This document shows, one piece after another, positions 52,919 to 55,900 of a stretch of DNA of 64,000 nt. The stretch is from assembly GCA_963663865.1 (NCBI GenBank), contig OY760686.1, forward strand, positions 128,001 through 192,000, written 5' to 3'. Each line of letters starts with the position of its first letter. Position 1 is the stretch's first letter. This DNA is from Spirochaetota bacterium. Lineage in GTDB: Bacteria; Spirochaetota; UBA4802; UBA5550. The notes below the pieces were generated by a model. That model saw nothing but the letters and a program-made list of their open reading frames with translations. It was not told the origin of the DNA and searched no databases. The translations under genes and the position numbers were made by a program.

Positions 52919-55900
52919 TTAAAAAAATGACCAGGTTGAAATATCTCTAAACCTGTCAAACCAAGCATGCTTTCTTTCCTCAGGTGGTTTGGTTGAGGAC
53001 GAAGAGTCATCTCCCGTTAATCCTTCAATTGGTTCAAAACCAAACAGATCTGTCAAACCCCAATATGTAATCTTTCCATCATCTCCTCCGATATGCAACG
53101 CCATCATTGCTTTATGTGATGCACCTGTTATCTGATCCACTTCCATGGTTAGACCGATTACGAAAGAAAATAGAGAAACATTTTCCATGAAGCTAAATCC
53201 GTCAAATCCAACTCCGCAAGCGACTAATCCAGCAGAAAGACTTAGACCAAGGAGGGTGTGAATTAAATTGTGCTCACAAAATGCGTCTTTATTCCATTTG
53301 CCACTATCTTCATCATATCCCTTGTTATAAATCGGCCCGGCAAAAAAGGATCCGAGTCCCCGTCTTGAAATCTCTGAAAAGCCAAGTGATGCTCCAATAC
53401 AGGCCCCGTTTATTGCTCCTGTAACCGCTCCAACTGAATTTCCTGTTATATAACCAGTTGTGCTATATTGAACCATGTACCAGGACATTCCAAAAGCATT
53501 GTTGAATCCCATTGTAGCTCCAACAGCCCCGCCGGCTACGCCACCAACCACTGCACCGGTAATTGCTCCGGCTACAACACCTTCTGGTCCATATTGTGCT
53601 CCTGCGAGAGCTCCGACATAGGCACCTGCCGCTGCACCAGCGATTGAACCGCCCACGGCCGAAACAATCTTTGTTGTTACTCCTTTAACCGACCAGTGCC
53701 CATTCCTGTCGATGAACATCAACGGATTGTTATTTACGTATGAATACCTGTTAAAGGCCTGTGTGTTCACTACCCCCGGGACAATGCTGTCCGCAGACAA
53801 AAACCTCCCAACAACAGGATCATAGAACCTTGCCTTGTAGTACAACAGCCCGGTTTTTACACCATCATCTGCCTGCCCTGTAAACTTCTGACTGAAGATG
53901 TTTTTGGATGCTTCAACAGTCCCTGTTGTTTCTCCGTATGGGGTGTAGTTCATGCGGGTTACTATTTTACCCGCTGAATCTGTCAGGCAGGCTATGCTTC
54001 CGAGATGGTCCGGGTGAAAGTAGTATGTGCCTGTTGTCGGAAGGCCTGACTCGTCGTAGTTGGGAAGAGGTGTCTGGCCTGTTGTCCCGCATTCTGGTGT
54101 TGTATCATCACCAGCTGCATCACCTCCCGTTGTGCTGTCTACATTGTCCTCTACAGCTGGTTGATCGTTCCTTGCTTCAACCTTATCGTCGCAAGCAGTC
54201 AGAAAGATCATAGAAAATAATGCTGTAACCATGACAGAAGAAACGGCTTTCTTGGAATAGGAATACCCGGCTGGTCTGAGCCCTTTGAATCTGCGTTTAA
54301 CACCAGTGACTACAATAGACCCAGCCAGAGCCAAAGCAAGAAATAGAATTAATGCAATATTGATATACCTGATATTCTTCACAGAACCGGTAAAATTTTC
54401 AAGCCCTATTAGACCTCTGGCAAAGTACTTTATTAAGCCGCTTCCGCCATAGCCGTTATCATACGACCATCCGTTTTTATCACATGCGGCTATGAGAGTT
54501 GGAGCGGTAGTCGTAACCTGTGCGGCAATATCTCCTTCCATGCCGTAAATGAATTTTGTATGCTGATCAATTCTCGCTTTTGCCTTTACAACCTGATATA
54601 TTCCATTGATGTTATATATCGTAGTGCCGTCCTGACGCACCTGCTTTATGCGGTGGCCTGTATAATCGTAGAAATTCTTCTGAACAATGCCCCCGCTTTT
54701 TAGTACACTAATAAGGCGGTTATTTGTATCGTACAAGTACTCATTATCTCTGCCTTTAACCATGTTCCCGGCATAGTCATAGCTGTAATGGTTTCCATGT
54801 CCGTCAAAGGTAACAGCATTTGGATGAGCCGGATCATCATACATGAGAGTCCCATGGGAGTTATGTGTAAGATTCCCTCCCGGTGAATATGAGTAATTTT
54901 CTTCACCGTAAATACCTCTGGCATATACGAGTCTTTTCAGGCTGTCATATTTAAAACTCTGGGATATGTCGCTCACTGCCTTCAGAGAATCATTAATCGC
55001 TGTAATATTCCCTGCTTTATCGTATGTATACGAGTTGTTTTCGAGGGTTTCGCCTTTGCTGTTGTAGCTTGCGAGATTGACCGGCTGCATTGTCGCCGGA
55101 TTGTAATCAATTATCGTCTCCGTAGAATCGCCTGTTATTCTGAAGACACTGTTTACAGCGGAGCTGCCAGAAGGATTAAGACCGTATTGAATATAAGCCC
55201 CTCCATCTTCTGCATTCGTGACGCTTTGCAAATATCCGGGTTCAGCGTAATTCCTTTCAATTCTGGTATTATCAGGAAATATTATTGATGTCATTTTCCC
55301 GGCTAAATTGTATTCCATCATGAAAACGTAATTTGTCGAATCTACCCGTTTTCGTGTATAAACAGTATTTCCATTTTCATCATAAGAGTATTTTGTAATG
55401 CAATTAGCCTCTTCAACAGCGGTCAACCTGCCAATTCCATTGGAAGCTGATGCTTCGTCGTAAGTAAACGTAACATCCGATGTTGCATCTTCGTCGTCAT
55501 AATCTATAGCCGTTTTTCTGCCTATTGCATCATAGCTGTAATTTACTATTCTATCATTTGCGTCTAATTTGCCCGTCATTCTTCCACACGCATCATAGGT
55601 AAAATATGTGATACCTGAATTGGGTTCTGTAATGGAAGTCCTCTGTCCAAGAGAATCATAGTTTATTGAAGTTATATTGTTATCCGCGTCAATTACAGAG
55701 ATAAGCCTATCAGCCGCGTCATATTGATATGAAATTGATGCAAGACCTCCTTCCCGTTTCGCTATAAGGCGGTTCCGTGAATCATAGTCTGACACAGTAA
55801 CAGAGCCAGAGGGATCAGTTTGCGTGACCGTGAAAATACCGGAACTGCCTGAATAGGCTGTTGCATAGGTAACATTTTCGGTTTCACTAATTGGTCGTGT

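Follow-up and report, generated by a model that had tools for sequence, protein, structure and literature searches.

A conserved predicted hairpin with an internal lipoprotein-type signal ahead of the core of a spirochaete RHS toxin

A 64,000-nucleotide stretch of DNA from a Spirochaetota bacterium (contig OY760686.1 of assembly GCA_963663865.1, positions 128,001 to 192,000; termed the window here) carries a gene for an RHS toxin of 2117 amino acids (aa). Between the last of its shell-forming repeats and its RHS core, the protein has an insert with two hydrophobic segments, TM1 and TM2 (predicted transmembrane segments), joined by a basic loop. The second segment ends in a lipobox and a cysteine, Cys1694. 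The hairpin and its cysteine are conserved in related toxins of the phylum, which suggests that the cell's own lipoprotein machinery may anchor the protein and cut it in the middle of the chain.

The RHS toxin gene and its insert

The 2117-aa protein is an RHS polymorphic toxin with the order Sec signal, SpvB domain, FG-GAP repeats, YD-repeat shell and RHS core. Pfam detects SpvB (PF03534, E = 2.7e-11) at residues 32-200, FG-GAP families (FG-GAP_3, PF13517, E = 1.7e-19; PF01839, E = 1.9e-14) and RHS_repeat (PF05593, E = 8.9e-33). NCBIfam adds YD repeats (TIGR01643, E = 2.3e-27) and the core at residues 1776-1859 (TIGR03696, E = 2.9e-19, 69.3 bits against a cut-off of 32.5 bits). With a signal peptide, SpvB, an integrin-like propeller and RHS repeats in one chain, the protein fits the TcdB/TcaC class, which is defined by these same components and has been listed for spirochaetes (PMC3482391). 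Residues D1828, D1855 and G1858 of the core are invariant in an alignment of 40 sequences. The second autoprotease motif (residues ∼1852-1859, window 53696-53720) reads I-D-R-N-G-H and not the usual D-P-x-G. The toxin tip resembles PF13441 (E = 9.4e-6), its 25.7 bits lying under the 28.9-bit cut-off.

Three hydrophobic segments stand out in a Kyte-Doolittle plot with a 19-residue window, namely the N-terminus (residues 1-30) and residues 1631-1660 and 1675-1695. The N-terminal one is present in 36 of 42 homologues of at least 1900 aa, in agreement with the Sec-like N-terminus reported in an earlier, sequence-only reading of the window. The other two are in the insert. The last YD-type motif, GMEGDIAAQV, starts at residue 1577 and the core motif, YYFHPDHLGS, at residue 1750 (codon 54023-54025); both motifs, the insert between them and the cysteine codon (tgc on the gene strand, gca on the plus strand) are found where that reading placed them. 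Motifs inside the insert start at residues 1637 (INIALILF), 1659 (KRRFKGL), 1676 (AVSSVMV) and 1691 (LTAC). The hairpin and lipobox described earlier are thus present, but their boundaries need correction: TM2 and the lipobox together span residues 1676-1693, and a further helix at about residues 1613-1629 precedes TM1.

TM1 reaches a hydropathy of 2.9 over its best 15 residues. The stretch KK-AVSSVMVTALFSMIF-LTA-C has the parts of a lipoprotein signal, a basic n-region, a hydrophobic region (h-region) of 15 residues and a lipobox, and it matches the pattern [LVI][ASTVI][GAS]C; the pattern by which N-terminal lipoprotein-like ORFs of this genome were detected also recognises it. This signal is not N-terminal. 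It begins at residue 1674, behind TM1, with the cysteine at residue 1694 of 2117, and by eye the n-region of TM2 is preceded by no start codon in the main gene and by no Met there or in those close homologues that were read.

A sequence search of the PDB with residues 1501-1870 matched 28 RHS, Tc and teneurin chains, all of them only from residue 1732 or later. The distance from the last YD match to the core is 34 residues in RhsP (8h8a) and 193 residues in the 2117-aa protein. Judged by these alignments, the 163-aa segment is an insert relative to solved RHS proteins. The coordinates of the features are collected in Table 1.

Table 1. Features of the RHS toxin gene and of its downstream fragments (positions are those of the window)
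Feature	Residues	Position	Strand	Basis
RHS toxin gene, fused TcB/TcC-like cocoon	2117 aa	52919..59272	minus	Stop-free open reading frame
Sec-type signal peptide (...LSAAEA, then D)	1-29	59186..59272	minus	Hydrophobic segment; cleavage site read by eye
YD-repeat shell, C-terminal part	700-1586	54515..57175	minus	AlphaFold2 beta-spiral, pLDDT ∼90; Pfam and NCBIfam YD repeats
Insert	1587-1749 (163 aa)	54026..54514	minus	Lies between last YD repeat and RHS core
Extra predicted helix ahead of TM1	∼1613-1629	54386..54436	minus	AlphaFold2 helix 914-930 (model numbering), pLDDT 65-77
TM1, predicted stop-transfer helix	1636-1658	54299..54367	minus	Hydropathy; AlphaFold2 helix
Basic loop KRRFKGLRPAGYSYSKK, predicted cytoplasmic	1659-1675	54248..54298	minus	Charge bias of the family
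TM2, signal-peptide-like h-region and lipobox L-T-A	1676-1693	54194..54247	minus	Hydropathy; AlphaFold2 helix 973-992 (model numbering)
Cys1694, putative lipidation and cleavage site	1694	54191..54193	minus	Conservation
Acidic Gly/Thr/Pro linker, tether-like	1695-1749	54026..54190	minus	AlphaFold2 pLDDT ∼30
RHS repeat-associated core, plug with aspartyl autoprotease	1750-1859	53696..54025	minus	TIGR03696; PDB core matches
C-terminal toxin tip, glycine-zipper-like stretch	1860-2117 and stop	52919..53695	minus	PF13441
First orphan fragment, loop before TM2 to core	1669-1807 of main gene	47778..48202	minus	BLASTN, 84.6% identity
Second orphan fragment, starts inside core	1775-1989 of main gene	50286..51081	minus	BLASTN, 88.7% and 93.6% identity

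Conservation of the hairpin and its cysteine

Residues 1560-1790, used as query in a word-based search, retrieved four relatives, all of which display the order TM1, basic loop, TM2, Cys, linker and core. A profile built from the five sequences matched 2484 proteins at E ≤ 0.001 among 1.84 billion representatives, 150 of which were listed. In all, 179 proteins were examined, and 85 of these qualify as hairpin-bearing, the hairpin being defined as two hydrophobic segments followed by the core motif within 140 residues. A cysteine is present at the end of TM2 in 82 of the 85 (80 by script, and the proteins P0083 and P0095 by eye) and absent in P0124, P0154 and P0165. The background frequency of cysteine in the proteins examined is 0.56%.

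Within the phylum, 301 genomes were searched and 70 have a match. Among the matches listed, the match reaches back over TM2 in at least 36 genomes besides that of the window; very long RHS proteins of one family match at the core only. Of the loci matched in this search, 29 were retrieved from other genomes of the phylum, four of them from the family of the present bacterium, and every one has both hairpin and cysteine. Loss of the cysteine among insert-bearing homologues had been named as an observation that would overturn the lipobox interpretation; it is not seen in these loci, and the alignment of homologues displays the predicted order of helices, basic loop and cysteine. Named relatives are Leptospira species, metagenome-assembled genomes (MAGs) of Leptospiraceae and Leptospirales, and a Spirochaetes MAG. 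RHS loci with the same core motif in Bacteroidota-type MAGs, Geobacter and elsewhere have no hairpin. Many Leptospira and Leptospiraceae members share a motif after the cysteine, G-x-PPW(I/L)L...(D/N)TPSV, which the window protein does not have.

Identity within the insert is only 26-44% among relatives while the order TM1-loop-TM2-Cys is kept. In the 40-sequence alignment (positions 886-1049 of the first sequence), the cysteine is the sole column of the insert that is at least 90% conserved, and there is no second conserved cysteine with which a disulfide could form. The linker after the cysteine has a median length of 51 aa in the family. A single internal lipobox is not rare: a loose pattern of basic residues, hydrophobic stretch and lipobox gives 15 internal matches in 11 of the 1358 open reading frames (ORFs) of at least 300 aa in the genome. 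The argument therefore rests on conservation, and since the same order recurs in dozens of divergent homologues, the arrangement is not due to chance.

Other copies in the same genome are a 2115-aa paralogue, a truncated paralogue, a fragment and the orphan in the window, and the cysteine is kept in all. The RHS copies at contig positions 771586 (2115 aa), 1180539 (1343 aa) and ∼1699912 have divergent hairpins, about 33% identical to that of the 2117-aa protein, that end in LTGC or FNGC, and the linker of the 771586 paralogue is just ∼15 residues long. In contigs from four other runs, no difference is found at the Cys and Ala codons and a synonymous one at Thr1692, among the 40 of 90 differences listed; this comparison is weak and not independent, several of the contigs representing the orphan copy, which ends at 54238-54254.

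Structure model

An AlphaFold2 model of residues 700-1860, based on the 40-sequence alignment, has a mean predicted local distance difference test score (pLDDT) of 84 and a predicted template modelling score (pTM) of 0.77. A confident beta-spiral shell extends to about residue 1589. Three helices follow, at about residues 1613-1629, 1631-1662 and 1672-1691, with pLDDT of 50-77. Residues 1692-1740 are disordered (pLDDT ∼30), and past this linker the core is again confident. The best structural matches of the model in Foldseek are Rhs effectors and the fused TcdB2-TccC3 (template modelling score for the query, TMq, 0.71), with E = 1e-41 to Rhs and Tc structures. Both the model and these matches show the RHS core continuing the spiral of the shell as an integral part of the cocoon. 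By its modelled structure, the protein is a fused BC cocoon.

Proposed insertion and processing

The most likely reading, with a probability of about 0.5, is that the insert forms a hairpin placed in the membrane by Sec, with processing of its second helix as a lipoprotein signal. We infer the topology, the lipidation and the cut, and also the purpose of the cut, along the following lines. Directed by the N-terminal signal peptide, the 1600 residues that form the shell would pass through SecYEG. Transfer is expected to halt at TM1, given how hydrophobic this helix is; the basic loop would then remain in the cytoplasm, and TM2 would restart export of the linker, the core and the toxin. As the core continues the shell spiral, core and shell have to end up on one side of the membrane; for this a hairpin and not a single helix would be required, and two hydrophobic segments are always present. 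Both parts of the cocoon would end in the periplasm, with the plug end held at the inner membrane.

TM2 has the make-up of a lipoprotein signal peptide, and on this basis Lgt and LspA are predicted to act at Cys1694. Lgt would add diacylglycerol to the cysteine, and LspA would cleave the bond that joins Ala1693 to it. This would leave a shell chain with the hairpin at its end and a lipidated piece comprising linker and core, and the core's own aspartyl cleavage near residue 1859 would give free toxin inside the shell.

Charge distribution and lipobox composition both bear on this scheme. Lys plus Arg average 4.2 in the loop across the family, compared with 2.3 ahead of TM1; over the 15 residues that follow the cysteine their mean is 0.7, and Asp plus Glu average 2.2 there. 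The basic loop and the acidic stretch after the cysteine fit the positive-inside rule and a hairpin with its loop in the cytoplasm, as in the threading of the inner membrane that the sequence-only reading had proposed. A near-invariant, unpaired cysteine at the end of TM2 would most simply be explained by Lgt and LspA. The genome encodes lspA (PF01252, E = 4.3e-34), and x-T-A-C is among the commonest lipoboxes of its 192 ORFs with N-terminal lipoprotein-like signals (FTAC 8, ITAC 4, LTAC 3). In Leptospiraceae loci, the residue at position −1 of such N-terminal signals is most often Asn (27 of 67), with Ser in 19 of 67, while the RHS sites favour Gly (47 of 80); this difference in preference appears to be neither clear support nor a contradiction.

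Hairpins are also found outside the phylum, and some of these have no cysteine: those of the proteins P0124, P0154, P0165 and P0183 and of the loci L071 (L005/L071) and L084. Because of them, the hairpin and not the lipobox is the more general feature. In five of the six, TM2 ends in A-x-A (ARA, ASA, ARA, AHA and AEA); P0183 has no clear A-x-A. A search from an alignment of three hairpins without cysteine gave five matches, among them P0183 (no Cys) and P0181 (Cys). A sample of 30 loci from another phylum, gathered by means of the core alone, gave 17 that could be parsed; hairpins occur in four of these, with Cys in two and A-x-A in the other two. The A-x-A endings fit a signal peptidase I version of the site and suggest that TM2 may serve as a signal peptide inside the chain, of type II in the present protein and of type I elsewhere.

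Alternative explanations

Several points weigh against processing at Cys1694. Known substrates of Lgt and LspA have their lipobox in the first few dozen residues, and we know of no precedent for LspA acting ∼1690 residues into a chain. Gln, Asn, His or Asp, residues not typical of LspA sites, stands at −1 in 18 of 80 members, although Asn is the commonest residue there in the N-terminal signals of the Leptospiraceae loci. A strict pattern, [LVIFM]x[AGS]C, fits only 34 of the 80, and a PROSITE-like pattern fits 45. The uncharged run of TM2 before the cysteine (family median 18 residues) is hardly shorter than that of TM1 (20 residues). The hairpin is modelled at a pLDDT of just 50-77, and the cysteine was part of the profile used to gather the homologue sets, a mild bias. 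To these are added the hairpins without cysteine outside the phylum; their number is small, and A-x-A arises easily by chance in Ala-rich proteins. Lastly, the benefit of a cut is not obvious, as the modelled core is integral to the cocoon and a cut in an external loop need not separate the halves. The division into a shell half and a lipoprotein half put forward in the sequence-only reading is doubtful for the same reason, and its export or display route is speculation.

Part of these points would be accounted for if the hairpin were not cut and served to anchor a periplasmic cocoon to the inner membrane of the producer, the cysteine having another role such as lipidation without cleavage, an intermolecular disulfide or packing. 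This is a tentative alternative, clearly less probable than processing of TM2 and still one to be taken seriously. The wider distribution of the hairpin than of the cysteine favours it, as do the near equal lengths of the two helices, the unusual residues at −1 and the expectation that a cut would leave shell and plug together. The near-invariance of the cysteine in the phylum (the 29 loci and 82 of 85 proteins above), always placed where a helix with basic residues ahead of it ends, speaks against it; so does the lack of a second conserved cysteine, as far as an intramolecular disulfide is concerned. In most members without cysteine, A-x-A occupies this position, a sign of cleavage rather than of mere anchoring.

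It is improbable that the helices stay out of the producer's membrane and are carried along by the cocoon, either shielded or bound to its surface, to enter the membrane of a target cell and aid the crossing of the toxin. They could be likened to the helices in the shell of mosquito SGS1 or to the N-terminal transmembrane domains of type VI secretion system (T6SS) Rhs effectors, and the cargo is itself glycine-zipper-like. In SGS1, predicted transmembrane helices are folded inside the RHS shell (PMC9935623). The Sec-type N-terminus of the protein and of the 36 long relatives argues otherwise, and TM1 with its high hydropathy would be expected to stop transfer. The helices also precede the core, outside the cargo position, and the basic loop is as expected for helices inserted in the producer. 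A search of the genome for TssC (PF05943), in which the E. coli control was positive, gave no match, and no PAAR family is present in the Pfam scan of the 2117-aa protein.

Very improbable is a recombination scar, in which a shell gene acquired, by in-frame fusion at its end, a formerly separate cassette of lipoprotein, core and toxin, and the hairpin itself serves no purpose: although the first orphan (Table 1) begins in the loop just before TM2 and is readable from a TTG as a lipoprotein-like N-terminus, and a few short database ORFs such as P0156 and P0136 start at TM2, most short ORFs are gene-caller truncations of orphans, the second orphan starts inside the core so that boundaries vary, there is no Met ahead of the n-region by eye, and the order TM1-loop-TM2-Cys is kept at low insert identity across divergent proteins and families of the phylum, for which reason a fusion artefact was rejected as the main explanation.

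Orphan fragments and neighbouring genes

The C-terminal toxin is variable and is followed downstream by two orphan cassettes, one of them split by an insertion sequence. The first orphan opens with MGTPALKK...LTAC, and a TAG stop takes the place of the Gln found at about residue 1800 of the main gene; relative to the main gene, the linker of this orphan is rich in insertions and deletions. Its boundary at the signal may be a matter of chance, because the second orphan starts at residue 1775. The orphan end is the same in contigs of other runs, which represent the same copy in related strains and are not independent support. The toxin tip of the second orphan (50286-50798 and 48648-49130) is split by a gene for a transposase of the IS256/Mutator family at 49026-50252 (PF00872, E = 1.6e-123), and the element has 30-nucleotide inverted ends at 48963-48992 and 50259-50288.

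Two genes on the minus strand, 52145-52876 and 51108-51893, occupy immunity positions. Both encode proteins with signal peptides and a C-terminal Phe, with no Pfam family; by eye they may be beta-barrels, and they have no relative in related RHS loci. The divergent gene upstream of the toxin gene is lipoprotein-like and has a sub-threshold match to CarboxypepD_reg. When window ORFs from position 40000 on were compared by BLASTP with the ORFs of the related loci L004-L040, only the RHS protein was shared. The downstream gene pair and the upstream lipoprotein were therefore rejected as conserved partners.

Farther from the toxin gene, four copies of a dispersed repeat of 58-83 nucleotides with an internal palindrome (45617-45818 and 47467-47679) flank the ParE/DCC1 region and the orphan end. 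The ParE toxin gene (45865-46412, minus strand; PF05016, E = 2.1e-16) adjoins an 84-aa ORF without a family, probably its antitoxin. A gene for a DCC1-like thiol-disulfide oxidoreductase (46741-47118, minus strand; PF04134, E = 1.7e-14) is situated between the repeats. Two small lipoprotein-like genes on the plus strand, 43655-44972 and 59554-60831, are paralogous, with 34% mutual identity.

Relation to known systems

The protein is of a known kind, an RHS toxin of the TcdB/TcaC class, and departs from it in the hairpin and the internal lipoprotein-type signal therein. The TcB-TcC cocoons (TcdB2-TccC3, PDB 4o9x and 6sup; YenB-YenC2) display SpvB, an FG-GAP propeller, a YD shell, a core with two Asp residues and a variable toxin, as here. 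The 2117-aa protein adds a Sec signal and the 163-aa lipobox hairpin, the latter absent from the matched PDB sequences. No TcA marker was found with it: the genome (3.16 Mb, 98% complete) has no match to PF03538 or PF18276, and the control genomes have none either, so that these searches have no positive control. The sequence-only reading had seen no T6SS or TcA gene in the window; with TssC this extends to the genome, and for TcA it carries the limit just given. Rhs effectors of the T6SS have an N-terminus linked to PAAR, prePAAR or VgrG and a T6SS to match, neither of which was found for the present protein.

An array of orphan cassettes like that of the window is described for toxins of the TcdB/TcaC class, and no helices or lipobox ahead of the core are described in the available portion of that source, in which the term lipobox includes the N-terminal ones of Amoebophilus effectors (PMC3482391). 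The WapA/Rhs protein of Streptococcus suis is exported unfolded by Sec and occurs in several fragments, with autocleavage after E735, D1819 and H2716 into four pieces (PMC12704120). Unlike the present bacterium, S. suis is monoderm; sortase and cell-wall anchoring are involved, and the accessible text describes no membrane hairpin or signal-peptidase site (PMC12704120). Bacterial teneurin-like proteins with N-terminal signals for signal peptidase II (SPII) have been reported (PMC13018210), and the myxobacterial toxin SitA is a lipoprotein (PMC5562445).

Bacterial lipoproteins share with the TM2 region a basic n-region, an h-region, a lipobox and a disordered tether; their signal is N-terminal, whereas that of the RHS toxin is internal. 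The cytochrome b-c1 precursor FbcH of Bradyrhizobium is a polyprotein that is cut at an internal signal peptide. Both in FbcH and in the bunyavirus Gn/Gc polyprotein, a transmembrane segment is followed by an internal signal peptide and the chain is split in two, by a type I peptidase there and by a type II peptidase in the present proposal, where the novelty would lie. In Gn/Gc, it is the signal peptidase of the host that cuts (PMC5113920). The literature search found nothing on an internal lipobox or an internal signal peptide in Rhs proteins, and no description of a pre-core RHS hairpin with an internal lipoprotein signal; supplements lay outside the search.

By analogy the RHS cocoon might itself be termed a polyprotein, in which Lgt and LspA cut the chain at the inner membrane and lipidate the plug-plus-toxin piece, and lipoprotein sorting and surface exposure then deliver the loaded cocoon or its plug and toxin, with a type I site taking this role in other phyla. 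This extension of the proposed processing is unlikely.

Implications

The hairpin bears on the question of how Sec-exported toxins of the RHS or TcB-TcC-like kind reach their targets in diderm bacteria that have neither a T6SS nor a TcA injector. A hairpin whose second helix is a lipoprotein signal would provide a concrete first step, the tethering of the plug end to the membrane, possibly with cleavage and lipidation by enzymes of the host cell. If LspA does cut at this site, it would be a natural case of type II signal peptidase action far inside a chain, and a third kind of processing for RHS toxins beside the two known self-cleavages. If the polyprotein reading were true, an RHS toxin would be delivered without T6SS, TcA or a dedicated secretion machine. 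As many of the proteins in this family are from Leptospira, the hairpin may also matter for how surface and lipid-anchored proteins of the genus are annotated.

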